A stretch of DNA of 64,000 bases, taken from an uncultured Clostridium sp. (GTDB lineage: Bacteria > Bacillota > Clostridia > TANB77 > CAG-508). The DNA lies in NCBI GenBank assembly GCA_945919455.1, contig CAMEJH010000002.1, positions 4,492 through 68,491 of the forward strand, written 5' to 3'. The notes under the pieces were generated by a model. It did no database searches, was not told the origin of the DNA, and saw only the letters and a list, made by a program, of their open reading frames with translations. Numbering within the stretch: position 1 is the first letter of the stretch; every line of letters starts with the position of its first letter. Positions 3,206 to 32,986 of this stretch are shown in pieces. A program made the translations under genes and the position numbers.

Positions 3206-3754
3206 CTAATTTTTTAAAGAACTTTTTTCAGATTCACTTTTTAGTAGTTCTAATGCTTTTTTATATTCTTCTTCTCCAAATTCTATTGTTTTTACAATTT
3301 CATCATTGTTTTTCATTTGTATAAATTCATCTATTGTTACCCATTTTGCCTCAGTTGATTCTCCATCTGTAAATTTTATGTCTTGTATATCTATGTCTTT
3401 TTTAAATAACCAAAATTCCTTAAAGTCTGGTGGAGTTTTGTCTCTTCTTATGTCTTTTAGGAAAATTGCTTCTTTTTCTAAAAGTTCTATTCCTAATTCT
3501 TCTTTAATTTCTCTTATTATTCCCTGTACACTTGTTTCTCCAGCTAGTACAGAACCTCCATTGCATTCCCATTTTAATGGATGAGTTTTTTTACTTCCCG
3601 CCCTTTTGCTTATTAATATTTTATTTTCTGAGTTTATTATTATTGCAGTTACAACTATGTGATATTCTCCTTTTTTAAACTTGTATTCCCCTCTTTGAGC
3701 TAATTTTCCTATTTTTTGTTTATTTATATCATATATGTCCCAAAGTTCTGCCAT
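3206..3754 (-). CDS. Nudix hydrolase (182 aa) with its own RBS and promoter inside the longer ORF
   Basis: ATG at 3754 preceded by CAGGAGGT RBS. Nudix box GETSVQGIIREIKEELGIE. About 70% identical over the N-terminus to the paralogue at 16331-17188. The conserved TGnTATAAT motif lies ~45 nt upstream. Confidence 0.6.
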   Translation of the reverse strand: MAELWDIYDINKQKIGKLAQRGEYKFKKGEYHIVVTAIIINSENKILISKRAGSKKTHPLKWECNGGSVLAGETSVQGIIREIKEELGIELLEKEAIFLKDIRRDKTPPDFKEFWLFKKDIDIQDIKFTDGESTEAKWVTIDEFIQMKNNDEIVKTIEFGEEEYKKALELLKSESEKSSLKN

Positions 3755-5269
3755 TTTTACCTCCTGTTTTTCTTGTTTTTCGTTATTGTTTTCCACAATT
3801 ATATCACTTGTTGTGGATTTATCAATAATTTTTACAGCACTTACATCTATTTCATTTTGGCGATATGATGTTATTTTAAATTCAGATTTTTTATCAAATT
3901 TTATTATTAATGATTTTGTGTAGTTGTCTTTATTTGGTTTGTTATATTCTTTTATTGTCATACTTGCATTATATTTTCTTAATGTATCAAAAGTATTCAT
4001 GAACCCCATACCTGTTCCGCCTTCTTCTGCATGTGTTGTACTAGGCTTATTTCCTAAATTTGATAATGTTTCTTTCTCAAATTCTATTCCTGAGTCATAT
4101 ATGTATAAACTGTAAATTTTGTCCATCTTTCCTAATTTTACTAGTATACTTTTGTTTACATTGTCTGAATGATTAATTGCTATTATTGCATTTTTTATAT
4201 GGTCTGCTAATAGTATTTCTAAGTCTTCTTTATTTATTATGTTGTTTACCATATGATGTATGTTTCCTTTTATTTGTACATTGAAGTCTATGTTACTTTT
4301 ATTACATTCTGATTGCATGTATTTTAACATATCGTCTATTTCTTCTACTTCTGTTTTAGTTAGTTCTACTGTTGCGGTTTTATTGTATAGTTCTTTTGAT
4401 ATATTATTTAATCTATCTTTTATATCTGTTGCTTCTGATATTTCACTTTTTAACATTAGTTCATTTATTTTGTATTCTAATGATCTTTGCTTATGTGCTA
4501 GTGTATGGCTTTTCTTGCTAAAACTTAAGTTTTCTTTCTCTAGTTGCTCTACTTCTTGTTTTTTCTTTTTTAGTTCTTCTTTTGTTTCGTTTAGATCTTG
4601 TATTAATAGTTTTTGTTTATAGTATAATTGTAGTGATTTTTGGATTGTGATGAACATGATAAATGCAAAAATTATTAATCCTACAGTTGTATTTCTTGCT
4701 AATTGTATATTGGCGTTAACAAATATTATAGCTAAAAATAATATAATTATACTAATATTAAGAATTAGCAACTCTATATAATCATTTTTCTCATAATTTT
4801 GTAAGAAAGATATGCCATATTTTAACTTTTTCATTTTTAGTATTCTTGTTAATATTATTATATGTACTAATGATATTAGTATGGAGTTTAATATATCGCT
4901 TTTAACATTTATAATCCTATTTATAATAAATATTACTATTGCAGCTATAAAAAATATTACATAGTTAAAAGCTAATGAAATTACAGTAATAATAATAGAA
5001 TTTCCCCTTTTATTGTTAGAAGTAATAGTAGAAACACAACTTAAAATAAGACCTAAAGCTATTAATCCAATCCAAAAGTTCGTTTTACTCTTTATAAAAA
5101 CTATTATTATTGGCATTATAAATAGAAGTATATATGCTATTATTTTCTTCATACTAAAAATTTCTTTATCATTTATTATTTTGATGAATGTAAAATAAGT
5201 ACAATAAATAATAGTAAAAGTTTTTATTAAGTTTACTTGTATCATTGTATCATTAAAATTAATTATCAT
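3206..5269 (-). CDS. continuous ORF: polytopic membrane domain + AgrC/LytS-like GHKL histidine kinase ATPase read in-frame (no stop) into a C-terminal Nudix hydrolase
   Basis: N-terminal ~200 aa strongly hydrophobic with multiple TM helices. SHTLAHKQRSL H-box-like segment and G-box-like TTHAEEGGTGMGF. A ~45-aa linker is translated from promoter-like DNA (SDIIVENNNEKQEKQEVK), followed by a Nudix box. See the separate Nudix feature for the internal start. Confidence 0.5.
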   Translation of the reverse strand: MIINFNDTMIQVNLIKTFTIIYCTYFTFIKIINDKEIFSMKKIIAYILLFIMPIIIVFIKSKTNFWIGLIALGLILSCVSTITSNNKRGNSIIITVISLAFNYVIFFIAAIVIFIINRIINVKSDILNSILISLVHIIILTRILKMKKLKYGISFLQNYEKNDYIELLILNISIIILFLAIIFVNANIQLARNTTVGLIIFAFIMFITIQKSLQLYYKQKLLIQDLNETKEELKKKKQEVEQLEKENLSFSKKSHTLAHKQRSLEYKINELMLKSEISEATDIKDRLNNISKELYNKTATVELTKTEVEEIDDMLKYMQSECNKSNIDFNVQIKGNIHHMVNNIINKEDLEILLADHIKNAIIAINHSDNVNKSILVKLGKMDKIYSLYIYDSGIEFEKETLSNLGNKPSTTHAEEGGTGMGFMNTFDTLRKYNASMTIKEYNKPNKDNYTKSLIIKFDKKSEFKITSYRQNEIDVSAVKIIDKSTTSDIIVENNNEKQEKQEVKMAELWDIYDINKQKIGKLAQRGEYKFKKGEYHIVVTAIIINSENKILISKRAGSKKTHPLKWECNGGSVLAGETSVQGIIREIKEELGIELLEKEAIFLKDIRRDKTPPDFKEFWLFKKDIDIQDIKFTDGESTEAKWVTIDEFIQMKNNDEIVKTIEFGEEEYKKALELLKSESEKSSLKN
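3786..3818 (-). promoter_or_regulatory. copy 1 of conserved extended -10 promoter/operator motif AGTGATATAATTGTGGAAA, flanked by CCACAA/TTGTGG palindrome arms
   Basis: Identical 19-mer at 3790-3808, 17704-17722 and 19262-19280, each 30-45 nt upstream of a minus-strand start codon. Confidence 0.5.
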
Positions 5270-7150: not shown

Positions 7151-7927
7151 CTATTCATTTACACATTTTTCTGAACATATAATTTCTTCCATTTTTGAAT
7201 ATACAGTATTATAAATTTCTTCTTCTGGTACTATATCTATTAGTCTAACACTTCCATATAGTGATATATGTTTTGCAATTTCTTTATATATCGAACTTTT
7301 TACTTGATCTTCGTATTTTTCACAAATTGCTTTTTCTGCTTTTAAAGCACCTAAAACAATATGTTTTTCACTTGAATTAGAACGCCAAGTTAACTCTCTA
7401 AATCGTATTGGATTTTCAATAACAAATTTTGTTAATTCATATTTGTCTTCTAATCTTTCATCTACAGAAAGTTCTACTCTAAAAAAGCATCTTGCCATTA
7501 CATTGAAAAAAATTCCTCTTCTTTTTCCTTGATTGAATAGCCAGTGGTCTCCAAATGTAGAATCTGATTTTATAGGCATTGCTTGTAAAGCTGCTTTATA
7601 TCCAATTGTGAAATTAAACCAAGCCCAAAATCTTTCATCTGTTAATATATATCTAGGTAAATCTTTTAATGCTTCATATATAATAATTGAATTTTGGTAA
7701 TCAACTTCTGAATAATCTCCACTTTCACTTGTTAATAATTGGATTTCTGGAATTTTATACTTTTTTTCTTCATATATTTTTCCACTATAAATTTCTTTTA
7801 TCCAGTCTGAAGTTTCTGCTTTTTCTTTTATTTTTTCTGTTGCAAATTTTGAATTTTTTCTTAGAGTTTCTATTGCTTCATCTGTCATAAAACAAATATT
7901 AATCTTGTTCATCTTCATTACCTCCAA
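7151..7927 (-). CDS. hypothetical protein, last gene of the 5-gene operon
   Basis: 258-aa ORF overlapping the upstream gene by 29 nt. No recognisable motif. Confidence 0.5.
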   Translation of the reverse strand: MEVMKMNKINICFMTDEAIETLRKNSKFATEKIKEKAETSDWIKEIYSGKIYEEKKYKIPEIQLLTSESGDYSEVDYQNSIIIYEALKDLPRYILTDERFWAWFNFTIGYKAALQAMPIKSDSTFGDHWLFNQGKRRGIFFNVMARCFFRVELSVDERLEDKYELTKFVIENPIRFRELTWRSNSSEKHIVLGALKAEKAICEKYEDQVKSSIYKEIAKHISLYGSVRLIDIVPEEEIYNTVYSKMEEIICSEKCVNE

Positions 7928-8807
7928 TCATTATGTTTCCAAATGTTATTTTCATTAAGTCTTCAATTGCATTAACTGTACCATTGTTTAGTAATTCTTG
8001 TGCAAGTTCTGCAGAATCTATTTCATAGAACTTGTCTTCTGTAAGTTCATATCCGTATTTTTTCTGAAATCCATTTTTTACTGATCTAAACCATCTATAA
8101 TTTAGTTCTATTTCATCAAAATCATATTGCTCATTTTTTATTTTTTCCAGTGCTTCTATAAGTATTGGAATCGCTAGCATAGAGAAGAATATATTTTGAT
8201 AGTTATTATTCTTTTTCATGTTATCATACATGTTAAATTGTTTTTCAGGTAAATATGCTATAATTTTGTCCCCAATTTCAACTCTCATATTCTTTTTGTC
8301 TGTTTCAGTATCTTTTATAATTAAAAATATTGAAGATACTTTTTTATCTGATGTTTCATCATAATCTATTACTATTGTGCTTCCATTATCTATAGCTATA
8401 ATATCATATTTTTCAATATAAAAATTATAATCTTCGTAATCTTCTAAGAAGTCATTGTTTCTATAATTTTCGATATCTTGTGTTGCATATATAAAACTTG
8501 ATATTACTACTCTATCACTTAAATCTGATATTAATATTTTAATATCTTCTGGTTCTAAACCAATATTATATGTTTTTCTAAATACTGATTTTGAACATTC
8601 TACAATTACACAGGCCTTTGCTTTTCCTTCTTTTATTAAGTTGATTATAGCTTCATTATTTATTTCAATATGAGCATCTTTTAAAACCAAATATTCATCT
8701 TCTTGTACCTGTTCATATTCAAGTGAATATGTTGTGTCTTTATAACAACTATCTAATCTTGAATTGTTGATTGTTGGATATGGAAATAATTTATTCTTTA
8801 TTTGCAT
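7899..8807 (-). CDS. hypothetical acidic protein, 4th gene of the 5-gene operon
   Basis: 302-aa ORF overlapping the upstream GHKL gene by 17 nt. No recognisable motif. Confidence 0.5.
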   Translation of the reverse strand: MQIKNKLFPYPTINNSRLDSCYKDTTYSLEYEQVQEDEYLVLKDAHIEINNEAIINLIKEGKAKACVIVECSKSVFRKTYNIGLEPEDIKILISDLSDRVVISSFIYATQDIENYRNNDFLEDYEDYNFYIEKYDIIAIDNGSTIVIDYDETSDKKVSSIFLIIKDTETDKKNMRVEIGDKIIAYLPEKQFNMYDNMKKNNNYQNIFFSMLAIPILIEALEKIKNEQYDFDEIELNYRWFRSVKNGFQKKYGYELTEDKFYEIDSAELAQELLNNGTVNAIEDLMKITFGNIMIGGNEDEQD

Positions 8808-10704
8808 ACATCTTCACCTCACATGCATATAATTCTTTTAAATCTGTTATAACCTCTATTTTAGTTCTTCCGTTATGTAATGGAATTTTAACTGCTTTTC
8901 CATTTTTTATTTCTGCTTTTGTTCCATTAACTACACAATCTATAATGTTTATATTATATTTTGTGTTAGAATCGTCTAAATAATACATTTCTAGTTCACA
9001 ATTTTTTTCTTCATATAATGAGTTAAATGAAATTACATATTTTCCACTTTTTTTGTCTACTACAAATAGTCTGTATTGCATTCCTTTTAATGGCACTATT
9101 CTTAATATTTCTTGGTCTCCCTCTTCATTAACTCCCTCTTCTGTGTCTGTGTCATGAGGGCCTCCTCCATGTCCATAATTTGTTCCATGTGGTACTGGTG
9201 AACCTTCTCCTGGTTCATGTGAGCCAATATCTGGCTGTAATGCATTACCATTTTCATCTTCTTCTATTCCTATTTTGCTTTTTGCTTTATTTTTTATTGA
9301 TTTTGAAATTGTTGGTCTTTCACCTACTATGACTTGGGTTTCTTCCCCTTCATCCATTCCATTATTTTCATCTACTTCTGGTAAATAATCACTTGCTCCT
9401 TCTATATCTAATTGCTCATTTTGGCTTGATGATAATACCTCATATATAAATTTTTGTATTTCTGTTTTTAATTGTTGAATCATGTTTGAAACTTCTTTTC
9501 TAAGCCCAATATCTTCTATTCTTTTTAATTCCCAGTCTGTGTGTTGTGGATTTTCTATGTCACGTAATGTCTTGTTTAAATCGTCGTCTTGTATTATGCA
9601 TATTGCAGAACATGGAATAGTTGATATGTTTTTAAATGATTTTATTTTCATATATGGATATCTGACCATTACACATTCATTTGTAGCAAGATATGATTCT
9701 TCTTTGTTGAATCCTTTTACATATATTTTTGCTTTTCCATATGTGTCTATTTCTATTTCTTTTGTTTGTACTCCTTCCGCTTCGGTTAATAATAAATATT
9801 GTGATTTTATATGTCTTTTTGCATTATTTAATATTAGTTCTTCACTGTTTACAATTCTCCTTAGAGTTTCTTTATTTATTACTATTGTATCAACTTTTAC
9901 TTCTAAGTCTCCAAAGATTATAGCAGCCATAAAGCTATCAAGTATTTTTGTGATTATTTCTTGTTTCCATGTTGGTTGTTCGTTAAATCCTAATATGTAT
10001 ATATCAGTTCCTGGTGTAGTTCTTGTAAAGTTTTTGTCAAGTTTTAATTGTTCCAACATAGGAGAGTTCTTTTCGTCACTTCCATAATATCCTATTCCTT
10101 GTGTTAGCTCGTCTGTTCCTGGCATTGTTGTTGAGCATAATTTTGATATTCCTATATATCCTACTTCGTTTTCAATGGTCTGTGTAGAATAAAATACAGT
10201 ATTAAAACCGCTTGCAACAAATGATGCAAATTTTCCTATACCTTTTGAACCACCACTTGTTCCTGTTTTATCTGTTATTCCACTTCCTTTTGTTAAAAGG
10301 TAAAATGCTGTTTGCCCTCTACTTGATACTCCTGTTAGTCCTTTTGTATTAAAGTCACTTATTCTTAAACATTTAATTTGTTCTCTTTTTATTGATGCAA
10401 GCATTTTTTCTAATTGTTCTGCATCTTTTATCTTGTTGTTGGCTTTTCGGTATTCTTTGCATGATGCAATTTCTTCTTCTAGCCTTTTTTCGCCTGGAAT
10501 GTCTTCTTTATTGATTTCAAATAATTGAAATTCTATTTTTACTTTGTCTTCTCCTTCTGCCTTTGCATCTATCGAGTTTTGACATGATTCTCTTGCTAAA
10601 GAAGCTATTGGGTCTTTTTTAAATGTTTCCATATCTGATGTATCTAATCCAAATTCTGTTGTATAGTTGTTACCTTTAAATCTCCATTTAATTTCTTCGT
10701 TCAT
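8791..10704 (-). CDS. GHKL-superfamily ATPase (HATPase_c_3/MORC/MutL-like Bergerat fold) with a C-terminal beta-rich domain
   Basis: N-box LARESCQNSIDA (ExxxNxxDA pattern of GHKL ATPases). Gly-rich G-boxes TGTSGGSKGIGKFASF. 637 aa. Starts 4 nt after the upstream gene's stop. Confidence 0.6.
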   Translation of the reverse strand: MNEEIKWRFKGNNYTTEFGLDTSDMETFKKDPIASLARESCQNSIDAKAEGEDKVKIEFQLFEINKEDIPGEKRLEEEIASCKEYRKANNKIKDAEQLEKMLASIKREQIKCLRISDFNTKGLTGVSSRGQTAFYLLTKGSGITDKTGTSGGSKGIGKFASFVASGFNTVFYSTQTIENEVGYIGISKLCSTTMPGTDELTQGIGYYGSDEKNSPMLEQLKLDKNFTRTTPGTDIYILGFNEQPTWKQEIITKILDSFMAAIIFGDLEVKVDTIVINKETLRRIVNSEELILNNAKRHIKSQYLLLTEAEGVQTKEIEIDTYGKAKIYVKGFNKEESYLATNECVMVRYPYMKIKSFKNISTIPCSAICIIQDDDLNKTLRDIENPQHTDWELKRIEDIGLRKEVSNMIQQLKTEIQKFIYEVLSSSQNEQLDIEGASDYLPEVDENNGMDEGEETQVIVGERPTISKSIKNKAKSKIGIEEDENGNALQPDIGSHEPGEGSPVPHGTNYGHGGGPHDTDTEEGVNEEGDQEILRIVPLKGMQYRLFVVDKKSGKYVISFNSLYEEKNCELEMYYLDDSNTKYNINIIDCVVNGTKAEIKNGKAVKIPLHNGRTKIEVITDLKELYACEVKMYANKE

Positions 10705-10707
10705 TGT

Positions 10708-13251
10708 TTATATCCTCCTTATTATAAACTCCGTTTTATTGTATGAATTAACTGTGTTTTCTACTTGAAATTTTTCATCTAAAAAGCTTCTTATTATCCC
10801 TATTAAAAGATATTTATTCCATGGTGTTTCTAATTTTGGTAGCATTGCATAACCATTAAAATTTTCTGTGCTTATACATTTATAGTTATCTAAAATTAAG
10901 TCTATTAATTTTTCTATTCTTTGTATTTGTTCATTAGTTATTTTGAATTTGTCTTTTCTAATCATAGTATCAATATTTATTTGAACATAGTCATCACTCA
11001 TATCTTCCATAAATGTTAAATAACTATACAATCCTCCAATATTCATCCTTTGTATATAATTTTGTATTTTTTCATGATTGAACATTTCCAAGCTTTGTGC
11101 ATATTCTTTTATGAGCATATCTGTTGTTTTAGTTATTTTTTCTTTGCTAATAAATGGTCTACTATAAAAGTAATCTTTATATAAGTAATTTATTATAGAA
11201 AATAGTTCAAAATGTCCTCGTTTTAAATGTAACTTGTCAAATAGTTCTTGGTTTGATATTCTTAATTTTGCATAAATTTTTCTTGATGATAATATTTTTG
11301 TATCAAATTGTATAAACATATTTTCTATATATTTTTTTAGTTCTTCTATTGTTTCTTTTTCAATTTTTAGTTTGTCAAAATAGATGTAGCACTTAGAATC
11401 TATTCGTATAAGTCCATTTTCTTTCTCACTGTATATGTAATTACTATATGTGTAATCATTTAATCCTGGAATTTTTTCTTTTATATCTTCAATAGAAAAT
11501 TCGCTTTCAAAGCTTTTGAAAGTATCTATTATCATATCTCTTGGAGTATAGTCCATTTCAGATATAGTTATATAGTCACGCTTTGTTGAAAATTCTTTTG
11601 GTAATTTGTCATCAATACATCCTTTTAAATAAAAGTAGTTGTCTATTCCATATTCTTCTAATTTTATTTTAAATTTATCAAATATTGTTCTATAATATAT
11701 GGTAGGTTGGTTCTCTACAATGAATTCTAATATTTCATTCAATAGATCTTCTGGTATTGACACACTATATTCTTTGACTATGTAAAGTCCTTTATCTTTT
11801 GTTATTAATTCTGCCCTTTCTATCATTCCTTGTATAGAACGCATAGATGGTATTTCTTCTAATTTTCCATATTGTTCTTCTACTTTTTGCATAAGAAGCT
11901 TATAGTCTTCTTCACTTCCTATACGGAATCCATTTTTAAATGTTTCTTTTATTTGGTATAAGTAAAGTTCGCTAAGATTCATTCCTTTCTTTATATATAA
12001 GTTTCCTTTATTTTTTCTATATTCTTTTTCTAATAATGTTTTTTGTATTTGGTTTAGTCGTTTTAAATCTTTTTCACTGATAAAATTTTCCATTGGTCTT
12101 AAGTTTTCTTTAGATATTTCTTCTATTGAAGTGTTTTTTTGATTATAAATAATTTTAAATTCATTATCATAAGTAATATCAAGCTCTTTTAACTCTAATA
12201 TCAAAAGTAAATATTGAAGCAATTCTTTATTATTTATTGATTTTGAGAATTCTTCTTCATTTACATATAATTCATCTTCTTTTATCAGATTTTTATATAA
12301 ACAATATGACAATATTTTAAAATTCTCTTTATATGATAGTATTTTATTTATTGCATTTTTTTCTAACTGCTTTGTTCTTTGTCTTGTAATGCCTATTAAA
12401 TTTCCCGTTTCTTCTAATGATAATCGTTTTTGTTCTTCATTATGATTATATCTTTTTTCTATTACAATTTTTTCATTTGGTTTTAATTTTTTTGAAATAC
12501 CTGAAATAATTTCTTCTTCTAACTGCTGATGTTTTATTCCTGTTTCTTTTAAAATTTTTTCAATTTCTTTTAGGTCATTTGAAAATATACATATTATTGA
12601 GTTTATAGAAACTTGTTTTAAGTCTTTTATTATATTTATGTTGTTTGAAAATAATATTTTTAATTGTAATTCATTATTTATTATTTCGGCTATTTCAAGC
12701 TTATCAAAAAATTCATCTATATCTTTGATTTTAAAGTATATATCCCTGTATATTTTTCTGGAATCTTTTACTATTGTATAATAATTAAAATAACAAATTT
12801 CTTTATTTTGATAATTGTTATTTAGCATGTCTAGAAGTGTTACATATTTTAGAGTTTCTTCTATATCACAATCTGTTTTTCTGATATTTTCATTTATAAA
12901 ATGATATAATTCTCCTTCTGTTAGTGTTTTATATTCATTTAACTTATTTTTAAATTTTTCTACTTTTTCGACACCTATTGCCTGATCTGCTAATAATTGA
13001 AATCCTTTTTTTTCTATATAGTTAAATTTATTCGCACAAAATGTATTTATTGCATTTGGCTTGATTAATTCTTTTCCATAAAAATTCCATAATGCTTTTA
13101 ATACATCTTCTTTTGAGAAATAATCCATTTTCCATAATTTACTTGCAATTAAATATTGAACGAATTCTTCTTCATATATTGTTTCGTTTTTTGTTTTGTT
13201 ATTAACTAGTTTTTCAATTACCTTTTTTTCATAAAATACATTACTTATCAT
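10708..13251 (-). CDS. large (847 aa) protein with an internal sigma-70 region-4-like HTH; no P-loop seen
   Basis: Segment KRYNHNEEQKRLSLEETGNLIGITRQRTKQLEKNAINKILS mirrors the sigma-70 region 4 pattern (LSLEEVGxxFGVTRERIRQIEAKALRKL). Start overlaps the upstream small gene by 4 nt. Confidence 0.5.
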   Translation of the reverse strand: MISNVFYEKKVIEKLVNNKTKNETIYEEEFVQYLIASKLWKMDYFSKEDVLKALWNFYGKELIKPNAINTFCANKFNYIEKKGFQLLADQAIGVEKVEKFKNKLNEYKTLTEGELYHFINENIRKTDCDIEETLKYVTLLDMLNNNYQNKEICYFNYYTIVKDSRKIYRDIYFKIKDIDEFFDKLEIAEIINNELQLKILFSNNINIIKDLKQVSINSIICIFSNDLKEIEKILKETGIKHQQLEEEIISGISKKLKPNEKIVIEKRYNHNEEQKRLSLEETGNLIGITRQRTKQLEKNAINKILSYKENFKILSYCLYKNLIKEDELYVNEEEFSKSINNKELLQYLLLILELKELDITYDNEFKIIYNQKNTSIEEISKENLRPMENFISEKDLKRLNQIQKTLLEKEYRKNKGNLYIKKGMNLSELYLYQIKETFKNGFRIGSEEDYKLLMQKVEEQYGKLEEIPSMRSIQGMIERAELITKDKGLYIVKEYSVSIPEDLLNEILEFIVENQPTIYYRTIFDKFKIKLEEYGIDNYFYLKGCIDDKLPKEFSTKRDYITISEMDYTPRDMIIDTFKSFESEFSIEDIKEKIPGLNDYTYSNYIYSEKENGLIRIDSKCYIYFDKLKIEKETIEELKKYIENMFIQFDTKILSSRKIYAKLRISNQELFDKLHLKRGHFELFSIINYLYKDYFYSRPFISKEKITKTTDMLIKEYAQSLEMFNHEKIQNYIQRMNIGGLYSYLTFMEDMSDDYVQINIDTMIRKDKFKITNEQIQRIEKLIDLILDNYKCISTENFNGYAMLPKLETPWNKYLLIGIIRSFLDEKFQVENTVNSYNKTEFIIRRI

Positions 13252-13489
13252 AATTCAAATCTCTTCTTTTCTTTTTTATTATCTTTTCTAAATTCTTCTC
13301 TTTGCTTGTCTAATTCCTCTTGAATTGCATTGAATATTGAATCTATTTGATCTTCTGTGTACTCATAAAAAGAAGAATTGGATAAATTATGTAGTTTTGA
13401 GATCAATTCTATTATTTTATTTGTTCGATTTTCTGCAATTCTTTTAAAATTTTCTTTTTTAGTATCCATTTTTATCTCCTTTTCCATGT
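13248..13489 (-). CDS. small charged protein (about 80 aa), first gene of the 5-gene operon
   Basis: ATG at 13489 with AAGGAG RBS 6 nt upstream. The longer ORF to 13520 lacks an RBS. Helical, Lys/Glu-rich. Confidence 0.4.
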
Positions 13490-13668
13490 ATATTTTAACA
13501 CATTCGGAAATATTTGTCAAATATTTTATAATTATTTGGTAATATTTTATAATTATTTTGTATTTTATAATGCTTTATTAACACAAAATATATTTTTTCA
13601 TTGAATAAAAACCAATGCTAACATGTAAAAATACAGTTGCACTGGTTTTATATTTACTAACTATTCCT

Positions 13669-14022
13669 TTATATTAACCTTTTCCAATTTTCTTCTTTAA
13701 ATCCAACAAAAATACCTTTATTTGATATTAATAATGGTCTTTTTATAAGCATCCCATCACTTGCTAATAATTTTATCTTTTCTTTGTCGCTCATAGTTGT
13801 CAATTTTTCTTTTAAGTTTAACTCTTTATATTTTACTCCACTTGTATTAAACCACTTTTTTATGTTTTGTTCACTACAATTTATCCATTCTTCCAATTCT
13901 TTAACTGTTGGTATTTCTTCAACTATGTTTCTATCTATAAATTCAATATTGTTTTCTTCTAACCACTTTTTTGCTTTTTTACAAGTAGAACATTTTGGAT
14001 ATTCTATAAAAATATTTTTCAT
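13669..14022 (-). CDS. ArsC/Spx-family (YffB-like) thioredoxin-fold protein
   Basis: 117 aa with N-terminal CSTC (CxxC) at the position typical of the ArsC/Spx family. Strong AAGGAGGGAAC RBS. Confidence 0.65.
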   Translation of the reverse strand: MKNIFIEYPKCSTCKKAKKWLEENNIEFIDRNIVEEIPTVKELEEWINCSEQNIKKWFNTSGVKYKELNLKEKLTTMSDKEKIKLLASDGMLIKRPLLISNKGIFVGFKEENWKRLI

Positions 14023-14037: not shown

Positions 14038-15324
14038 TTATTCTGTTACTAAACTAATTATCCAATAAATCCATGATTTTATTGTTGATGCTCTTCTATA
14101 ATATGTAATATCACTGGTAATATTATATAATTTACATTCTCTCATATAATTTACAATTTCATCATCAGAAGGCATTTCTGATTTTTCAAAATATTTTTTT
14201 ATTGTCATATGAAAAACTTTATGTGATAATATTAATTTTACAAATTCTATTTGCCTTGATTTATAATTTAATTTTAATATTTGTTTTCCTAAATTAGTGA
14301 TTTCGAATTTTTTTATTTTAGTTCCTGACTTTTTAATTAATCCTAAATATATAGCTGCATCTGTATAATAATTAGTTTGCCTAGATACAAATTCATAATT
14401 ATTCGTTATTTCTTGTTTTTCTTTTTCAGAGTTTTGAAGCATTTCGCATAAGTTTATAACTCTTTCGAAATTGTTTGCTTGTGGAAATGAAACTGTTGGT
14501 TCTTGATCAAAATTTTTTATATTGTCTATTAAATTTTGTATTGTTCCTAAATCAATATTTGTATCTTCAATACTATATTTTTTACATTTAACTAATTCGA
14601 TAGAACTATATTCATTCTCTTTATTAAATTTATATTCAAATATTGTAAATATTCCATTAGAATATACTATATATATTGGTCGCACTAATTTTGTAACTTT
14701 TGACTTCCATAATCTATATGGATAATATAATTGTCTTACTAAAAAATCTTCTGCTACTACATTTTTAGCTTCAATTAAAGCTAAACTATTAGTTCCCTCA
14801 TATCCACCATCTATTTCTATTCTTGAATTTTCAACATTAATACTCATTTTTTTATTACTATTTATTTGGGCTATTTCAAAATTAAACACTCCCGAACCCA
14901 TCTTTCCACTTACTGTTGGTACTAATTCCTCTTCTCCCAAAAAGTCCTCAAGTATTTTTGTAATATATGCACAATTTAATGCCAAAGTTTCACTAGTTAT
15001 ATTATTATAATCTAAACTTTCTATATATGGAAGAAACTCAACTTTTTGTACTTCTTTTGGCATTCTTTCAAATTTTTTATAAGCATCAAATTTTGCTACC
15101 ATATAACTATTACTTGATATTGGTAAAATTGATAACTCATTCTTTTTTAATATTTCAGGAATACTTTCACTATTATCAAATTTAGTCATTAGTCTAGCTT
15201 CTCTAAATTCATTTATTTCTTTAGAAGAGATTTTAAAATATCCTTTATTTTTAATTTCTTCTAAAATGTTATATTTTTCAAAGATTTTTTCCCATGCTTC
15301 TTTATTAGTTGAACATCTAGACAT
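14038..15324 (-). CDS. putative Type II restriction endonuclease (PD-(D/E)xK), cognate to the adjacent Dam-family methyltransferase
   Basis: IEIDGGYEG...LALIEAKN fits a PD-(D/E)xK core. 8-nt start/stop overlap with the upstream MTase gene. Confidence 0.5.
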   Translation of the reverse strand: MSRCSTNKEAWEKIFEKYNILEEIKNKGYFKISSKEINEFREARLMTKFDNSESIPEILKKNELSILPISSNSYMVAKFDAYKKFERMPKEVQKVEFLPYIESLDYNNITSETLALNCAYITKILEDFLGEEELVPTVSGKMGSGVFNFEIAQINSNKKMSINVENSRIEIDGGYEGTNSLALIEAKNVVAEDFLVRQLYYPYRLWKSKVTKLVRPIYIVYSNGIFTIFEYKFNKENEYSSIELVKCKKYSIEDTNIDLGTIQNLIDNIKNFDQEPTVSFPQANNFERVINLCEMLQNSEKEKQEITNNYEFVSRQTNYYTDAAIYLGLIKKSGTKIKKFEITNLGKQILKLNYKSRQIEFVKLILSHKVFHMTIKKYFEKSEMPSDDEIVNYMRECKLYNITSDITYYRRASTIKSWIYWIISLVTE

Positions 15325-16174
15325 TATTTTTTACTAACACCTCTCTTACTTCACCTCTTGAATTACCATTACTGTTTATTGCTCTTTTGGCTTTAACTGA
15401 AATAATTTTATATTTTTCTGTATTTGCATATAATTTTCTAATAAACTCGCAATCAGAATTTGAAAGTAAAATATGAACACCTTTATCAGTCAATCTATCA
15501 CACAAACTTTTTAATCTTATCTGTTCTTCTTCTCCAAATCCGCTTTCATTATACCCAGTAAAATTTGAAGTTTTAGAAATTGGAGCATAAGGAGGATCAA
15601 AATAAACAACAGCTCCCTTTTTTATTCCTTTAACAGCACTTTCAAAATCTCCACTTAAAAAAGTTATATCAACATCATTAAAATATTTACTTACAGCTCT
15701 CAAACCAGCTTCGTTAATTATATTTGGGTTTTTATATCTACCAAAAGGCGAATTGAATTCGCCTACACTATTTACTCTATATAATCCATTATAACAAGTT
15801 TTATTAAGGTACAATATTCTTGCAGCTTTTTGAACTCCAGTTAAATTATTATATTTTTGTGGTATTCTGTCCAATTCTCTGATATTGTAAAAATTTTCTG
15901 ATGTATTCGAATATTTTTCTTTCTTTAGCTCAGATATTAAATCCTCTACATTATCTTTTATAACTTTATAAACATCTATTAGCTCATGATTAACATCATT
16001 TATTATAGCTTTTTGTGGTTGAATATCAAATAATACTGCCCCTCCTCCAACAAAAGGTTCATAATACATAGTATTTTTAGTTATTTTGGGCATATATTTT
16101 TTTATTTCTGGTAGTAATTGCCTTTTTCCCCCTACCCATTTTAAAACAGGCATAACCAATTTATTTTTTTTCAT
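15317..16174 (-). CDS. dam: Dam-family N6-adenine DNA methyltransferase (D12 class)
   Basis: LKWVGGKRQLL, FVGGGAV (AdoMet motif) and DPPY catalytic motif. 285 aa. GAGGAG RBS. Confidence 0.8.
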   Translation of the reverse strand: MKKNKLVMPVLKWVGGKRQLLPEIKKYMPKITKNTMYYEPFVGGGAVLFDIQPQKAIINDVNHELIDVYKVIKDNVEDLISELKKEKYSNTSENFYNIRELDRIPQKYNNLTGVQKAARILYLNKTCYNGLYRVNSVGEFNSPFGRYKNPNIINEAGLRAVSKYFNDVDITFLSGDFESAVKGIKKGAVVYFDPPYAPISKTSNFTGYNESGFGEEEQIRLKSLCDRLTDKGVHILLSNSDCEFIRKLYANTEKYKIISVKAKRAINSNGNSRGEVREVLVKNNV

Positions 16175-16330: not shown

Positions 16331-17188
16331 CTAGACTGTATTTCTTATTATCTCACTTTCAAAATATTTTTCTTGAAAATTAGTTAATTCTCTTATTTCA
16401 CTATCTGTATATTCTTTTCCTTTAGGCACAATAATAAGTTTATCATCATCATCATTTGTTCTATTTATTACTGCTATACATTCTCCTTCAAACGTTTTTA
16501 GTGGTTCATCTATTCCTAAAATATAACAGTCTATTTCTTCTCCATCTTGGCTTTTAGTGTTAGGTATATATCCATAATTTACAGGATATATAAATCCATA
16601 TTTAGGATGTTTACTGTTTAATGGTCTATCTATTTCTGCTTTAACTGTTTTTCCTATAAATTGATATGATTCCCTTTGTTTTATTTCTAGTGCTTTGTTA
16701 TATTCTTCTATTCCAAAATCAACTGTTGGTACAATTTCTTTTTTATTATACATATTTATAAATTCTTCTATTGTTACCCACTTGCAATCTATAGATTCAC
16801 CATCTGGAAATGTGATTTCTTTTTCATTTATATCTTTTCTAAATAACCATAAATCTTTAAAATCTGCTGGTGGTCTGTCATCCCTTATTTCTTTCAAAAA
16901 AATTGCATCTTTTTTGGTAAATTGTATTCCTAGTTCTTCTTTTAGTTCTCTTATAATTCCCTCTAGACTTGTCTCTCCCGCTAAGATTGAACCTCCATTA
17001 CATTCCCACATTAATCCAAATCTTTTATGAGCTGCTCTTTTTGTTATTAAAATTTCTTTATTTGAGTTCATTATTATTCCAGTTACAACTAGGTGATATT
17101 CTCCTTTTTTTAGCTGATATGCATCTCTTTGAGCAATTCTTCCTGTTTTCTTTTTGTTTATATCATATATATCCCATAATTCGCTCAT
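16331..17188 (-). CDS. Nudix hydrolase fused to a C-terminal inorganic-pyrophosphatase-like domain
   Basis: Nudix box GETSLEGIIRELKEELGIQ. C-terminal NYGYIPNT and DGEEIDCYILG resemble family-I PPase motifs (NYGFIPQT, DGDPLDVLV). Confidence 0.55.
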   Translation of the reverse strand: MSELWDIYDINKKKTGRIAQRDAYQLKKGEYHLVVTGIIMNSNKEILITKRAAHKRFGLMWECNGGSILAGETSLEGIIRELKEELGIQFTKKDAIFLKEIRDDRPPADFKDLWLFRKDINEKEITFPDGESIDCKWVTIEEFINMYNKKEIVPTVDFGIEEYNKALEIKQRESYQFIGKTVKAEIDRPLNSKHPKYGFIYPVNYGYIPNTKSQDGEEIDCYILGIDEPLKTFEGECIAVINRTNDDDDKLIIVPKGKEYTDSEIRELTNFQEKYFESEIIRNTV

Positions 17189-17207: not shown

Positions 17208-17681
17208 TTATTTCATGTCATCATTTATTTTATGTACTGGAAAAACCATTTCTTTAAGAATTTCTTTGATAACCTGTGGTTTTAATGGATATTCTTCTAT
17301 TTTGTCTAAATCTAACCATTCATATTGTAAATGTTCTTTTCCTTCCACATTTTTTATTGTGTCTGTTATTTTTTTGTCTTCTTCTCTTTTGAATTCTGCT
17401 TTGTGTACAAACATAATTTCATGGTATTTTCTGCCTTTCATTTCAAAAAAGTTTTCTATTGTAGAAATATATCCTGTTATTTCTATTTCTTTTCCCGTTT
17501 CTTCTATGACTTCTCTTTTTACTGTTTCTTCGGAATTCTCACCTATTTCAACTCTTCCTCCTAATAGTGCATAATGATCTGAATTAGCATTTTTATGTAC
17601 TAGTACTTTGTTATTGTGCATAATTATTACACCTGCCCTTATATTTAGTTTGTAATCTTCAACATCAATTGTAATATCCAT
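17208..17681 (-). CDS. Nudix hydrolase
   Basis: GGRVEIGENSEETVKREVIEETG matches the GX5EX7REUXEEXGU Nudix box. AAGGAG RBS. Conserved promoter motif upstream. Confidence 0.7.
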   Translation of the reverse strand: MDITIDVEDYKLNIRAGVIIMHNNKVLVHKNANSDHYALLGGRVEIGENSEETVKREVIEETGKEIEITGYISTIENFFEMKGRKYHEIMFVHKAEFKREEDKKITDTIKNVEGKEHLQYEWLDLDKIEEYPLKPQVIKEILKEMVFPVHKINDDMK

Positions 17682-20435: not shown

Positions 20436-21404
20436 CTATATTTGTTTTTTATCTACAAGTCTCCAGTAATGATATCCTAGAGCAGTCAGTTTGCATGACT
20501 TAGAATTCATAGCGGCAAAATACATATGATCTTCATCTACTGGTACTACTAGTCCTACGCTAGCCAACTTTTGAAGTTCTTTAAATATTGCAACATTTTT
20601 TTCATCCGCATATGGTTCAATAACCTTATGTTCTATATCAATAGCATTAGTGTACTCGAATGATGGGTCTAACTTGAACTCTTCTTGTGGAGTTTTAAAA
20701 TATTTTGTTAGATTTCTAATAATACTAATTGGTACTTGTGGTTCTATTTCTCTAATTGAATTAAATTCTTTAACATTTGTTTTAAATATTGGTCTTTGAT
20801 CCCATTCTCCTAATGCTTGGTCAATATATGCATATATACTACTTGGCGTTATCTTTCCATTAATATTAGCAGCACCGCCTTTTAAACCTTCCAATAATAA
20901 ATTTGTAAATACACCATGTCCATTTATTTCTTTTGATGTTTCATAATCAAGGCTAGATGTAAGAATAGAAACTCCTTCAGATATTGTACATTCATATCCT
21001 GATTCTATACTTGGTTTGCCAATTGCTCCCGAATAACAACAATCAAGTATAATTATTTTGTTTCTAATTTTGGATGAATTTGCTATTTTCAGTATATCAT
21101 CCATTGAAATTCCCCAATCATTTTCTGTAAAATCTGGTGTAACTATATAGCCACCTAGTTCATTTATGTATCCGTGTCCAGAGAAATAAAATAGTGCTGT
21201 ATCAGTAGTTCCTTCAAATAGTTTTTTTATTAAACCTAATAACTCACCTTTTTTTTGAACATTTAATGCTGTTTTTACGTCAAAATTAGGAGAACCATCT
21301 CCATTAGTATCTATAATAGATGCCAATGCTGTTGCATCATTTATACAACAATTTAATTGGTTGTTTGGATAGTTATTTATCCCTACAATTAGTGCTTTAC
21401 TCAT
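20436..21404 (-). CDS. caspase-like peptidase (C14/metacaspase family) with a C-terminal ~130-aa domain of unknown function
   Basis: ALIVGINNY...CCINDA, catalytic His in FYFSGHG and catalytic Cys in IIILDCCYSG, as in metacaspases. Confidence 0.75.
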   Translation of the reverse strand: MSKALIVGINNYPNNQLNCCINDATALASIIDTNGDGSPNFDVKTALNVQKKGELLGLIKKLFEGTTDTALFYFSGHGYINELGGYIVTPDFTENDWGISMDDILKIANSSKIRNKIIILDCCYSGAIGKPSIESGYECTISEGVSILTSSLDYETSKEINGHGVFTNLLLEGLKGGAANINGKITPSSIYAYIDQALGEWDQRPIFKTNVKEFNSIREIEPQVPISIIRNLTKYFKTPQEEFKLDPSFEYTNAIDIEHKVIEPYADEKNVAIFKELQKLASVGLVVPVDEDHMYFAAMNSKSCKLTALGYHYWRLVDKKQI

Positions 21405-21514
21405 TTATCATACCTCCTCTTACTATAAATGAACGATTATCTCTCGATATCCTCATTTTTCTTTGTTTTTTATTTTTATTATTTTTATAATAATAATCTA
21501 GTATTTGTTTTTAT

Positions 21515-22084
21515 TTAATATTCTTTTAACTCACCACCACTTAGCCAATCCTTTAATGAAGTATATTTATTATTTACCTGTCCATCATTTACCCAAAAAT
21601 CATATTTACCACTTTTTTTATCTTTTGCATAATCAATATACGGATATATTCCTAAATATTCTAGCCCTTTATACTCATTGCTTCCATTATTTAAAATTGG
21701 TAATATTGCAGCTCTATTCTTTTTTCCATCTGCATATCCTAATTCCCAAGGGCACCACTTTGAATTAACAATATTTCCTGTAGCAATATAAGATAATCCT
21801 AAGCAATTATTTATTCGCTCTCTCAAAATTCTTGCTGTCTCTGATGATACATTTTCCCTGTCTTGCAATGAGCTTTCTTTCCAATCTATATAAACTTCAT
21901 ATCCTGCTTCTTCGAATTTTTCATATAATACTTCCACTAATTCTTTATCCATAAAACTATGCGAAATAAATAAATCATAATTTTTATTAACTATAAATTT
22001 TCTATTTTCTAGCAATAAAGAAAAATTATTAAAATTATTTTTTTTCTTTAATTCATTTTCTAAAAAGCTTTTAGTTAAAATCAT
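21515..22084 (-). CDS. TIR-domain protein (ThsB-like)
   Basis: DLFISHSFMDKELV...GYEVYID...SKWCPWELGYA contains the bacterial TIR motifs, including the conserved Glu in WCxxEL. Confidence 0.7.
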   Translation of the reverse strand: MILTKSFLENELKKKNNFNNFSLLLENRKFIVNKNYDLFISHSFMDKELVEVLYEKFEEAGYEVYIDWKESSLQDRENVSSETARILRERINNCLGLSYIATGNIVNSKWCPWELGYADGKKNRAAILPILNNGSNEYKGLEYLGIYPYIDYAKDKKSGKYDFWVNDGQVNNKYTSLKDWLSGGELKEY

Positions 22085-22185
22085 ATTTTCACCTCCAAAT
22101 TATTCATATATAACTGCTTATTTATTATATCAACTTAAATCTATTTTTTACATACTTAAAATGCGACAAAATAGTTATTTTTTAA

Positions 22186-22566
22186 CTATTTTGTCGCATT
22201 TTGTGTCATTTTATAATTTTCATAAAATTCATCCACATTATTTTTCTTTAAACATTCTCGAAGTGATTCTATAATTCTAACTTTCTCTTCTAGAGTAATA
22301 TTTTTACCTTTTAAAAATTTATCAGATATTTTTATGTATTCTTCTTCTGTTATTCTGTTTATTTCGAACAAATTATCTAAGCTTACTTCATATATATTAG
22401 CTAATTCTATTGCTTCTGTTATACTCATATCTCTTCTATTTGTTTCCCAACTTGAAACCTTTGAACGACTTATATCTAATTTTTCAGCCAACTGTTCTTG
22501 TGTAATTTTTTTACTTTTTCTTAATTCTTTTAATTTTTCTATTATTGCATAGTCCATATATTTCAT
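22186..22566 (-). CDS. XRE-family HTH transcriptional regulator
   Basis: ITQEQLAEKLDISRSKVSSWETNRR, the HTH_3 pattern. Confidence 0.65.
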   Translation of the reverse strand: MKYMDYAIIEKLKELRKSKKITQEQLAEKLDISRSKVSSWETNRRDMSITEAIELANIYEVSLDNLFEINRITEEEYIKISDKFLKGKNITLEEKVRIIESLRECLKKNNVDEFYENYKMTQNATK

Positions 22567-22683
22567 CCCTCTAGCTACTTATAACACATCTTTTATGCAT
22601 TTTTTGTCGAAACTTGTCAGTTGATATAAAAAAAGCAAAATAATTCTGTAAAACTAATTACATTATTATTTTGCTTTTTCAAA

Positions 22684-23913
22684 TTAATCTTTTTCTTTAA
22701 TCAACCAGTCCAATACATTTATCTTCTTTATTCCGTCAAAATCAGCATCTAAGTCATCATCTAATGTTAATATATATTTAGGATAATTATCGCTTATCTT
22801 CTTTAATGGAGCTAATTCTCTTTCTAATACGCTACTATTACCATCAGCAGATTCCCTTGTAGTTAATGCTACTTGATAATAAATTGTATTTTCTGAATTT
22901 TTTGCTACAAAGTCAACTTCTAAGTCATCATATTTTCCAATATAAACTTCATATCCACGCCTTAATAATTCAAGGTAGACTACATTTTCTAAGATATGTC
23001 CCATGTCTTTACCAGAGCCTTGACCTAACATATAATATCTAAGTCCTATATCTACTGCATAATATTTTTCCTGTGTTTTTAAAAATTCTTTTCCTTTTAT
23101 ATCATATCTATTTGCTTTATACACAATATAACTATCAATAAGTGCTTGAACATATGTTGAAACAGTATTATATGAATTATTTTTTTCAAGACCTTCAATA
23201 TTGTCACTTATGTTTTTCATACTTGTTCTATTTCCTATGTTATCATATAAATATTTAGTTACTCTTTCTAAGGTGTTTTTATCTGTTATTCCTTTTCTTT
23301 GCATTACGTCCTTAAATAAAATTGTATTGTATATTCCATCTAAAAACAAGTTAATATTTTCTGGATTAATTTTAAATAATTCGATTGCTTGTGGAAATGA
23401 ACTATATCGTAAATAATCTCTAAATTTTCTTGATAAATCTGTTTTATCTTCAAAAGCTGATAAATATTCTTTAAATGACAATGGCAACATTTTGATCTCT
23501 ATATATCTTCCTGTAAGTAATGTTGCAAGTTCTGATGATAAAAGCCAAGCATTTGATCCAGTTATATATAAATCAACATCTTTATTAATAAAAAGACTAT
23601 CTACTGTTTTTTCAAATTCACCAACTTTTTGAATTTCATCTAAAAATATATATGTTTTTTTACCTTTTACCAGTTTTGATTTTAAATATTCATATAATTT
23701 TTTTCTATCTTGTAATTCTTCATAATCTGCATCTTCAAAGTTGATTGATATGATTTGATTCTCTTCTACTCCATTTTCTTTCAAATAATCTTGAAATAAC
23801 TCTAATAAAGTAGATTTACCACATCTTCTAATTCCTGTTATTACTTTTATAATTTGTTGATCTTTGAAATTTCTTAATATAGATAAATAATCTTCTCTTT
23901 TTATTCTCTCCAT
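22684..23913 (-). CDS. AAA-family ATPase (AAA_14 + DUF4143 type)
   Basis: Walker A GIRRCGKSTLL, Walker B IFLDEIQ. ATG at 23913 with GGAGGAG RBS. The longer ORF to 23964 lacks an RBS. Confidence 0.7.
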   Translation of the reverse strand: MERIKREDYLSILRNFKDQQIIKVITGIRRCGKSTLLELFQDYLKENGVEENQIISINFEDADYEELQDRKKLYEYLKSKLVKGKKTYIFLDEIQKVGEFEKTVDSLFINKDVDLYITGSNAWLLSSELATLLTGRYIEIKMLPLSFKEYLSAFEDKTDLSRKFRDYLRYSSFPQAIELFKINPENINLFLDGIYNTILFKDVMQRKGITDKNTLERVTKYLYDNIGNRTSMKNISDNIEGLEKNNSYNTVSTYVQALIDSYIVYKANRYDIKGKEFLKTQEKYYAVDIGLRYYMLGQGSGKDMGHILENVVYLELLRRGYEVYIGKYDDLEVDFVAKNSENTIYYQVALTTRESADGNSSVLERELAPLKKISDNYPKYILTLDDDLDADFDGIKKINVLDWLIKEKD

Positions 23914-24086
23914 AAAATCTCCTCCAACTATTTTTATTATACTATTTTTTATTATTATAGTCAAGTTTTTTCAAATTTATGAAAAAACTTTTGAATTTTA
24001 TTAAGTTTTTTCATATCGAGAGTATAATAATATTATTTTTATCTATTAAAAACACTAAAACGACTATCAATAATAGCCGTTTTTTA

Positions 24087-24845: not shown

Positions 24846-24871
24846 AACGACTCCTTTCTATTATGAATTTA

Positions 24872-32975: not shown

Positions 32976-32986
32976 TATTTGCCCCC

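Follow-up and report, generated by a model that had tools for sequence, protein, structure and literature searches.

Five co-directional open reading frames (ORFs) lie on the minus strand at positions 7151-13520 of a 64,000-nt stretch of DNA from an uncultured Clostridium sp. (GCA_945919455.1, contig CAMEJH010000002.1, positions 4,492 to 68,491 of the forward strand). This whole stretch is called the window here, and positions given without a locus name refer to it. In the order of transcription the five genes are designated s, X, A, B and C (Table 1). The last three give collinear, full-length matches to the three models of PDC-M33 in the PADLOC database: A matches PDC-M33A with E=3.3e-145 (residues 1-634 on profile positions 1-625 of 627), B matches PDC-M33B over its full length with E=7.3e-65, and C matches PDC-M33C (PDLC04586) with E=2.1e-39. 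More distant clades match the models too. Judged by these matches, the locus is an X-containing variant of PDC-M33, a system whose core has already been catalogued, and thus the "unclassified" system of the initial annotation turns out to have a name. PDC-M33 corresponds to cassette CAS_00129 with 98 occurrences in RefSeq v209 (Payne et al., bioRxiv 10.1101/2024.01.29.577857; PADLOC-DB v2), and it was derived by guilt-by-embedding in BREX, DISARM and type I restriction-modification (RM) systems (Payne et al., bioRxiv 10.1101/2024.01.29.577857). No mention of PDC-M33 or of DUF6339, the Pfam family of C, was found in the literature searched. The PDC-M33 model consists of three genes, whereas this locus adds s, the optional X, a conserved operator and a linked methyltransferase, all of which are outside the PADLOC model. 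Four features appear to be undescribed: the five-gene architecture containing X, a fourth core gene and its operator, a methyltransferase partner that can be swapped, and the MORC/MutL fold of A.

Table 1. Genes and other features of the window, the operon first.
Feature	Position	Strand	Evidence
Promoter/operator-like region	13492..13547	-	-35, extended -10 and AAATATTT palindromes
s, 73 aa, helical, basic C-terminal tail (KKxKRFEL)	13248..13469	-	conserved in s-anchored loci
X, 847 aa, optional accessory protein	10708..13251	-	Pfam Sigma70_r4
A (PDC-M33A), 637 aa, GHKL (Bergerat) ATPase and S5/transducer	8791..10704	-	PADLOC model
B (PDC-M33B), 302 aa, beta-rich N-terminal and helical C-terminal domain	7899..8807	-	PADLOC model
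C (PDC-M33C), 253 aa, DUF6339, Arg- and Trp-rich	7151..7912	-	Pfam and PADLOC
428-aa DUF6996/DUF6997/DUF7226 protein	14038..15324	-	Pfam E=1e-67, 3e-51, 2e-30
D12-class N6-adenine DNA methyltransferase, DpnM/Dam-like	15317..16174	-	MethyltransfD12 E=4e-76
ArsC/Spx-family gene	13669..14022	-	ArsC E=2.5e-19
Nudix genes	3206..5269, 16331..17188, 17208..17681	-	
Peptidase_C14, AAA_14/DUF4143, DUF6791-ThiF and KAP genes	20436..26781, 36837..38591	-	
M78 (IrrE-like) peptidase	27462..28199		
Three-gene RM-like or defence cassette	28622..35869	-	

The genes of the operon are packed closely. The s and X genes overlap by 4 nt, X and A are separated by a 3-nt gap (TAA-aca-ATG), A and B overlap by 17 nt, and B and C overlap by 14 nt, or by 29 nt only if the maximal ORF of C (258 aa) is taken. 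The start of C is most likely ATG 7912, which has GGAGG 8 nt upstream, and the resulting length of 253 aa is also given by gene callers on identical contigs. The start of s is ATG 13469 behind a GGAG ribosome-binding site, which yields 73 aa (homologues have 72-78 aa); TTG 13520 as the start of a 90-aa ORF was rejected, as it begins at the first base of a -35 hexamer. The best promoter-like site on the minus strand within 6500-14200 is located here: TTGACA (13520-13515) is followed, after 17 nt, by an extended -10 element TG-n-TAAAAT ending at 13492, with 11/12 matches. No terminator-like site was found within the operon, and the upstream ArsC-family gene ends in a hairpin and a T-run ahead of s; thus, s-X-A-B-C is a single tightly coupled operon under its own promoter. 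Its base composition is the same as that of the surroundings. The initial annotation had described five coupled minus-strand ORFs with overlaps of 4, 4, 17 and 29 nt. The ORFs and their tight coupling are borne out, and the junctions and the lack of an internal terminator agree with its proposal of a co-transcribed, translationally coupled module, whereas the X/A overlap, the 29-nt B/C overlap and the TTG start of the small gene have to be corrected.

Which of these genes belong together can be seen from about 150 related loci in total. The genome set consists of 77 species-level loci anchored on A, which were compared by tblastn and clustering of all ORFs; 44 of them are evaluable, in that A-B-C is complete and flanked on each side by 1.5 kb or more. 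The independent metagenome set consists of 80 loci anchored on s, with 38 long enough downstream and 33 evaluable for methyltransferase and X. In the genome loci A, B and C are always together in the same order, and s is directly upstream of the cassette in 37 of the 44 evaluable loci. Starting from s, A-B-C with or without an intervening X follows in 37 of the 38 metagenome loci with enough downstream sequence. The s protein is 44-80% identical to the copies in loci of other species, being the best conserved of the set, and s is the fourth core gene. X is found in 36 of the 77 genome loci, always between s and A; it is present in about a third of the evaluable loci (15/44 in the genome set and 11/33 in the s-anchored metagenome set). 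The five genes had been taken as one unit: the s-A-B-C core stands, while X is optional and a fixed set of five does not exist.

The promoter of the operon carries a set of short repeats. Two AAATATTT palindromes, at 13508-13515 and 13519-13526 and thus 11 bp apart, flank and overlap the -35 hexamer, and a third half-site is located two helical turns upstream (13541-13547). Upstream of s in general, 183 copies of AAATATT/AATATTT were counted, 2.65 per 120-nt window, occurring in 56 of 69 non-redundant loci and peaking at -80 to -45 from the s start codon. In 1047 intergenic windows of the same loci, taken as the control, there are 0.20 copies per window, meaning a 13-fold enrichment upstream of s, and only 0.3% of the control windows have three or more copies. 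Of the 69 loci, 38 also have TTGACAA beside the AAATATT motif. Where s is missing (eight loci), 0-1 copies are found upstream of A. In the clade with C5 cytosine methyltransferases described below, most promoters are without the exact AAATATT motif and a few have it. Among the cassette proteins only s tracks the motif by presence, and s is therefore probably an autoregulatory controller of its own operon. Its conserved basic C-terminal tail suggests a protein contact.

Such an arrangement is reminiscent of the C proteins of type II RM systems. In both cases a small gene is located directly upstream of potentially harmful genes, palindromic repeats with a spacing of about 11 bp cover the -35 region of the controller's own promoter (here as an operator predicted from the sequence), and the controller gene is linked to a methylase, divergently or co-directionally. 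C proteins have an XRE-type helix-turn-helix, whereas s has no HTH_3/XRE signature and no detectable relative, and bears a basic tail; neither Pfam, NCBIfam and PHROG nor a PDB profile search gave a relative of s.

The commonest neighbour of the cassette is a DNA methyltransferase. In the 77 genome loci a D12 methyltransferase cluster occurs at 47 loci, compared with at most 13 for any other cluster, and a D12 enzyme is encoded within 2 kb in 32 of the 44 evaluable loci. The gene is 73-470 bp from the cassette, a distance that grows to about 1.4-1.8 kb where a restriction-enzyme gene stands in between. It occurs upstream in some loci and downstream in others, on the one strand or the other, and was never found further out in the 10-kb flanks. 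In the s-anchored set a D12 or C5 methyltransferase is within 2 kb in 26 of the 33 evaluable loci, and two more have a full DpnM-DpnA-DpnII cassette directly upstream of s. In a large metagenome clade the gene directly upstream of s is that of a C5 cytosine methyltransferase, and divergent but genuine PDC-M33A/B/C follow. Overall, a D12 or C5 methyltransferase stands beside the cassette in about 75-85% of loci. In the genome set, s is present wherever the methyltransferase is present (32/32), and all seven loci without s are also without the methyltransferase. In both sets every locus that has s and no methyltransferase carries X as well; no intact X-less s locus without a methyltransferase was seen, the apparent exception (L132-134) being joined contigs with a gap in the B match. 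In three genome loci the methyltransferase is the DpnM of a complete DpnM-DpnA-DpnII cassette, and in one locus (L151) a Vsr gene follows C, along with a Dcm-type methyltransferase. At L063 s heads a DpnII cassette, not A-B-C. The initial annotation had found no methyltransferase, which is right for the inside of the five genes and misleading for the locus, since a D12 methyltransferase gene is two genes upstream of s; its further view that the system is unlike methylation-linked ones for want of a methyltransferase is contradicted by the D12 or C5 enzyme being the commonest neighbour, directly adjacent in most loci.

The D12 methyltransferase of the window matches M.DpnII-1 (2dpm) with E=2e-76 and E. 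coli Dam with E=5e-45, and is therefore probably specific for GATC. Its gene overlaps by 8 nt the gene of the 428-aa DUF6996/DUF6997/DUF7226 protein, which has no sequence relative in the PDB and is probably the cognate restriction endonuclease, of an unclassified family; the two would probably make up a GATC type II RM pair. A pair of this type, a methyltransferase gene and a gene of the 428-aa type, flanks the cassette in 12 genome loci and at least four metagenome loci. At one of them, L010 from a close relative whose flanking genes are 87-99% identical, the cassette is a different variant (A 55% and X 40% identical) and is on the opposite side of the same methyltransferase-endonuclease pair, which suggests cassette turnover at one hotspot.

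Protein A had been taken for a GHKL ATPase, and both its conserved residues and its predicted fold confirm this. The fold is visible by structure prediction only: A had no match in Pfam, NCBIfam or PHROGs, nor did an A profile in the PDB sequences. In the model a Bergerat-type GHKL ATPase domain is followed by an S5/transducer domain of the MORC/MutL type, the order that marks membership, then by a disordered Gly/acidic linker of about 105 residues (428-533) and a C-terminal beta-sandwich (536-637); in a fold search with this model the closest structural relatives were MORC3, SMCHD1 and MutL. In 108 non-identical homologues of 23-60% identity, the residues E39, N43, D46, D117, G122, G152, G155, G157, K158, T174, R348, E384, H388 and W391 are invariant. 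They include GHKL motifs I-IV, namely E39/N43/D46 (ExxxNxxD), D117/G122 (DxGxG-like), G152/G155/G157/K158 (the Gly-rich lid) and T174 (motif IV). An ExxxH motif, E384-N-P-Q-H388, is invariant in 108/108 homologues and, in the model, follows the last strands of the second domain; ExxxH is the hallmark of the Gram-positive/cyanobacterial paraMORC2 family (Iyer, Abhiman & Aravind 2008, PMC2292703). The MORC-specific S5 motif GhXhhpXXRhl is not present in A when the alignment is read by eye: the segment around the invariant R348, A340-T-N-E-C-V-M-V-R-Y-P, is without the Gly and the hydrophobic pattern of that motif. A shortened A was seen at L160 (829-2163; GCA_019973115.1), which has an identical B and the same downstream genes; there A is no longer than 444 aa and runs up against a gene of the opposite strand where the contig ends, and it may be an insertion or an inactivated copy.

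Protein X has a variable N-terminus and a conserved C-terminal module of about 540 aa, for which no known relative was found; it also contains a helix-hairpin-helix-like segment and sigma-70 region 4 (about residues 237-304). The region 4 noticed in the initial annotation is real: Pfam Sigma70_r4 matches with E=3e-8, and a profile of the X family matches region 4 of RpoD/SigA in the PDB with E=5e-14 and nothing else there. Since sigma-70 region 2 was not found, either in Pfam or with the PDB profile, X is by its domain content a region-4-containing protein and not a sigma factor. It is homologous over about 650 residues to a longer relative of at least 1153 aa (hhalign probability 99.7%, E=9e-27) that carries two RNA_pol_A_CTD domains and Sigma70_r4 and is encoded downstream of C in its locus. 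In a C5-methylase clade the X-like gene is downstream of C rather than between s and A (L138:10758-14216; also L137), and at L138 it has two RNA_pol_A_CTD domains (E=7e-33), helix-hairpin-helix motifs and Sigma70_r4.

Proteins B and C offer fewer clues. B is beta-rich in its N-terminal domain (1-187) and helical in its C-terminal one (188-295); a fold search gave beta-sandwich matches only, with no enzymatic fold and no receiver-like match, and B is therefore probably an adaptor or structural subunit. No family was found for B in Pfam, NCBIfam or PHROG, and a B profile had no match in the PDB sequences. C belongs to DUF6339 (E=8e-33), with W101, R137 and R146 invariant (numbering of the 258-aa ORF), and a C profile likewise had no match in the PDB sequences. 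A profile scan of 1.84 billion cluster representatives yielded 813 DUF6339 proteins, essentially all of them stand-alone and about 250 aa long. Eight length outliers scanned with Pfam contained no informative fusion; one has a glycosidase fragment and is probably a chimaera. C may be the DNA reader or the effector. Three of the five proteins had been said to be without motifs, which holds in Pfam for s and B but not for C.

Loci of this kind are found mostly in gut and rumen Bacillota, and some are on mobile elements. Conjugative plasmids of Lactococcus lactis encode homologues of A, with AbiGI/GII and an AlwI endonuclease as neighbours; further homologues are on plasmids of about 190-360 kb in Ligilactobacillus salivarius. 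The temperate phage NatCom_9291 of [Clostridium] innocuum (L159:1907-8274) has genes for 74, 637, 294 and 354 aa right after its integrase, the 637-aa product matching A while s, B and C are assigned by size and position only, and a DNA methyltransferase is annotated about 1 kb downstream. CBASS, GmrSD, Mrr, Fic and serine recombinase genes are neighbours of related loci. In the window the operon is part of an island that contains the RM pair, a TnsA-like/N6_N4 methyltransferase/UvrD-PD-(D/E)xK cassette, a KAP NTPase, a caspase-like protease, DUF6791-ThiF, an M78 peptidase and several Nudix genes. With this defence-island setting a role in defence, as initially proposed, is still the best reading.

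In our proposal a complete unit comprises [DNA methyltransferase] + s + (X) + A + B + C and would work as a restriction-like module that is guided by methylation, depends on ATP and travels on plasmids and prophages; we place about half of our confidence in it. Family membership, the fold of A, the conserved ATPase residues, the linkage of the genes and of the methyltransferase and the co-variation of the operator with s are direct observations; we infer all the biochemical activities, the direction of the methylation dependence and the effector. An outline would be as follows: the neighbouring methyltransferase would mark host DNA, the mark being placed by the DpnM/Dam-like enzyme, probably at GATC, in the window and by a C5 cytosine methylase in other clades. 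As a small DNA-binding controller, s would occupy the AAATATTT repeats that cover the -35 of the strong promoter from which it is expressed, and thereby limit or delay expression of the downstream genes, like the C proteins of type II RM systems. A would dimerise on ATP and clamp DNA in a MORC/MutL-like manner, and together with B as an adaptor and C as a putative reader/effector it would act on unmarked DNA, either by cutting or by entrapment and silencing. X, if present, would be a DNA- or RNA-polymerase-related sigma-region-4/helix-hairpin-helix module that targets or triggers the complex.

Several observations weigh against this proposal. The methyltransferase of the window forms a separate transcription unit, with the ArsC/Spx-family gene and a terminator-like hairpin lying before s. 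The methyltransferase is not obligatory, since at least 10 loci with s and X have none in the available sequence (L029, L034, L040-42, L044, L064, L086, L093 and L096) and seven Anaeroplasmataceae loci consist of bare A-B-C, without s and without a methyltransferase. Many of the neighbouring methyltransferases have a type II endonuclease of their own (DpnII, the DUF6997 protein, AlwI), and the linkage could be mere embedding beside ordinary RM systems, as in the first discovery of PDC-M33, which itself belongs to a list of 145 untested "phage defence candidates" (Payne et al., bioRxiv 10.1101/2024.01.29.577857). The link between s and the operator is correlative, and no recognisable DNA-binding fold was found for s in Pfam, NCBIfam or the PDB. 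In the five proteins no nuclease or other effector domain was recognised in Pfam, PADLOC, NCBIfam and PDB profile searches and in the fold search with B. Much of this would suit a self-contained phage sensor or abortive-infection system, independent of methylation, in which A-B-C (with s and X) came to lie beside methyltransferases through insertion near or in RM systems, and in which X or A, on detecting a phage protein or the takeover of RNA polymerase, would lead the complex to arrest the cell or the phage. The definition of PDC-M33 by embedding, the loci without a methyltransferase (with X present in all of them that have s), the Anaeroplasmataceae that retain A-B-C alone and the endonucleases of nearby methyltransferases are all in line with it. 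So are the two RNA_pol_A_CTD domains and Sigma70_r4 of the X relatives; the surfaces of sigma region 4 and of RNA polymerase's alpha-subunit C-terminal domain (alpha-CTD) are known targets of phage takeover proteins. It does not readily explain why the adjacency of the methyltransferase is far above that of any other neighbour and survives a change of orientation, a change of side and the swap from D12 to C5, why most loci have no recognisable cognate endonuclease beside the methyltransferase, or why s and the methyltransferase co-vary perfectly in the genome set, and X, missing from about two thirds of the loci, is not a general sensor. We therefore regard a methylation-independent sensor, the main rival, as possible and rather doubtful.

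A non-immune role deserves less weight. The unit might be a methylation-coupled device for DNA maintenance or silencing that mobile elements carry, either a MutL-like repair aid at methylated sites or a MORC-like clamp that compacts and silences DNA without cutting, as could be imagined from the structural closeness of A to MORC3, SMCHD1 and MutL, the lack of a recognised nuclease in the cassette, the Dcm-type methyltransferase with Vsr in L151 and the Dam-type methyltransferase in the window. Its patchy mobile distribution on plasmids, in an integrase-proximal slot of a prophage and in islands with Abi, CBASS, GmrSD and RM genes is nevertheless that of defence cargo and not of a repair system, and variants are swapped at one site in close relatives, as under arms-race turnover. 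Bacillota are not known to use Dam/MutH-directed repair, which also counts against a repair aid. We consider such a device unlikely. Still more remote is an addiction module for post-segregational killing, in which A-B-C would be toxic and s, the methyltransferase or both would be the antidote stabilising the mobile element. It would account for the strong, tightly regulated promoter with its operator, for a small gene that precedes the others and overlaps the next by 4 nt, a layout shared by many toxin-antitoxin loci, and for the carriage on plasmids and a prophage; nevertheless, bare A-B-C without s or a methyltransferase persists throughout a family of Mollicutes-like genomes, a toxin of four to five large genes would be unusually heavy, and RM systems also act as addiction modules, so that addiction would be compatible with a methylation-guided module. 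We give it very little credence. There is also a nuclease-free version of the methylation-guided reading, in which A, acting as a MORC-like clamp together with B and the DUF6339 protein, traps and silences incoming DNA without the host methyl mark, and X, built from copies of the RNA polymerase surfaces hijacked by phages (sigma region 4, alpha-CTD-like), is a decoy sensor, possibly replacing methylation as the discriminator between self and non-self in loci without a methyltransferase. It is speculative and, as a whole, improbable; if true, such a clamp would be the prokaryotic equivalent of the methylation-linked MORC/SMCHD1 silencing known from eukaryotes and, as far as its logic goes, possibly an ancestor of it.

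The initial annotation had noted that the operon does not fit BREX, DISARM or Dnd, and PADLOC agrees: the five proteins have no match with E<=0.1 to the proteins of these systems (PglZ/BrxC, DrmA/B/C and DndA-H). Membership in BREX, DISARM or MZA was rejected on the PADLOC and NCBIfam results. MZA likewise combines a sigma-70 region-4 protein with a GHKL ATPase in a defence operon, but A does not match MzaB, and X has only a weak match to MzaA, confined to the region-4/C-terminal end (about 110 of 683 positions; NCBIfam score 20 against a cut-off of 800). For MORC/paraMORC GHKL ATPases a role as components of RM systems, with links to Dam/Dcm methylases and Vsr, has been predicted (PMC2292703). 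The present system shares with them GHKL and S5 domains, linkage to Dam-/Dcm-type methylases and, in one locus, Vsr; A also shares with paraMORC2 the ExxxH in the C-terminal part of S5 and the Gram-positive distribution, a likeness drawn from the published description only. Those operons have an SFII helicase and/or a nuclease (RE-fold, HNH or Vsr) plus a methylase, whereas neither helicase nor nuclease was recognised in this operon, in which the partners are B, the DUF6339 protein, s and X. Partners typical of paraMORC operons are found elsewhere: Vsr after C in L151, an HNH gene in the variant at L150 described below and a methylase nearby in the window.

Phage defence by a related ATPase has been demonstrated for VcSduA, a Shedu type I-D (paraMORC3) protein in which a GHKL ATPase is fused to a DUF4263 PD-(D/E)xK nuclease and the residues of both are needed for defence (PMC12137116). 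VcSduA is a paraMORC-type GHKL ATPase whose essential ATPase residues are invariant in A; it is a single protein with a fused nuclease, whereas here there are several subunits, no DUF4263 and no recognised nuclease. In comparison with MutL-MutH-Dam of E. coli, no MutH/Sau3AI-like protein was detected here, as the fold of B differs and C has no sequence match; there is also no MutS, the setting is a mobile defence island, and C5 methylases take part in other clades. The HEF_HK/Response_reg_2 pairs, which are enriched around type II RM systems and near genes of C5 methylases (Bellieny-Rabelo et al. 2021, PMC8011034), resemble the present system in having a paraMORC-related GHKL protein and an adjacent partner gene near RM genes or C5 methylases, but A, B and their distant relatives are without PF19191 or PF19192, and B is without a receiver-like fold. 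A signalling module, an alternative raised in the initial annotation, finds no backing: there is no histidine-kinase or receiver Pfam match in the five proteins and no receiver-like match for the fold of B.

What had been a bare three-gene PDC-M33 candidate is now a defined, testable system with an ATPase, a controller and its operator, an optional RNA-polymerase-related subunit and a swappable Dam-/Dcm-type methyltransferase. If the methylation-guided model is true, it would represent a restriction-like system that is widespread in Bacillota of the gut, the rumen and dairy, among them hosts of Lactococcus plasmids that matter for starter cultures, and its executing step would do without any known nuclease fold. 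The original role of MORC-type ATPases, a question raised by the 2008 prediction of an RM origin, would then also become accessible to experiment.

Some further observations concern the surroundings of the operon and a variant of it. At L150 (5207-11580; also at L140 and L147) s behind a C5 methylase heads another cassette, which encodes proteins of 767 aa and 254 aa and a type II-like endonuclease of the HNH kind. Bergerat-like motifs (AIQNAVGA, SDSGTMGLTG and GGGLYGAGKS) can be made out by eye in the 767-aa protein; the 767-aa and 254-aa proteins as divergent A and C were not accepted, the hhalign comparisons being not significant (E=0.068 and 0.39). In the window, the flanks had been described as containing a Spo0A-like regulator, Nudix genes, RM genes and an XRE gene; the regulator, the Nudix genes and the RM pair are there, and so is the XRE gene, though its XRE/HTH_3 match is weak. 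The ArsC/Spx-family gene between the RM pair and s is found only in the window among the loci examined. Spx proteins bind the alpha-CTD of RNA polymerase, and relatives of X carry alpha-CTD domains, which may be a coincidence. The three large overlapping or adjacent genes of the RM-like or defence cassette encode proteins of 886 aa (with a TnsA-like endonuclease domain), 566 aa (an N6_N4 DNA methylase) and 960 aa (a UvrD helicase fused to a PD-(D/E)xK nuclease). Of the genes on either side of this cassette, one encodes a caspase-like Peptidase_C14, one an AAA_14/DUF4143 ATPase, one DUF6791-ThiF (E1-like) and one the KAP-family NTPase. Nudix genes are unusually dense around the system, and they include a 687-aa HATPase_c-NUDIX fusion and a fusion of NUDIX with inorganic pyrophosphatase.

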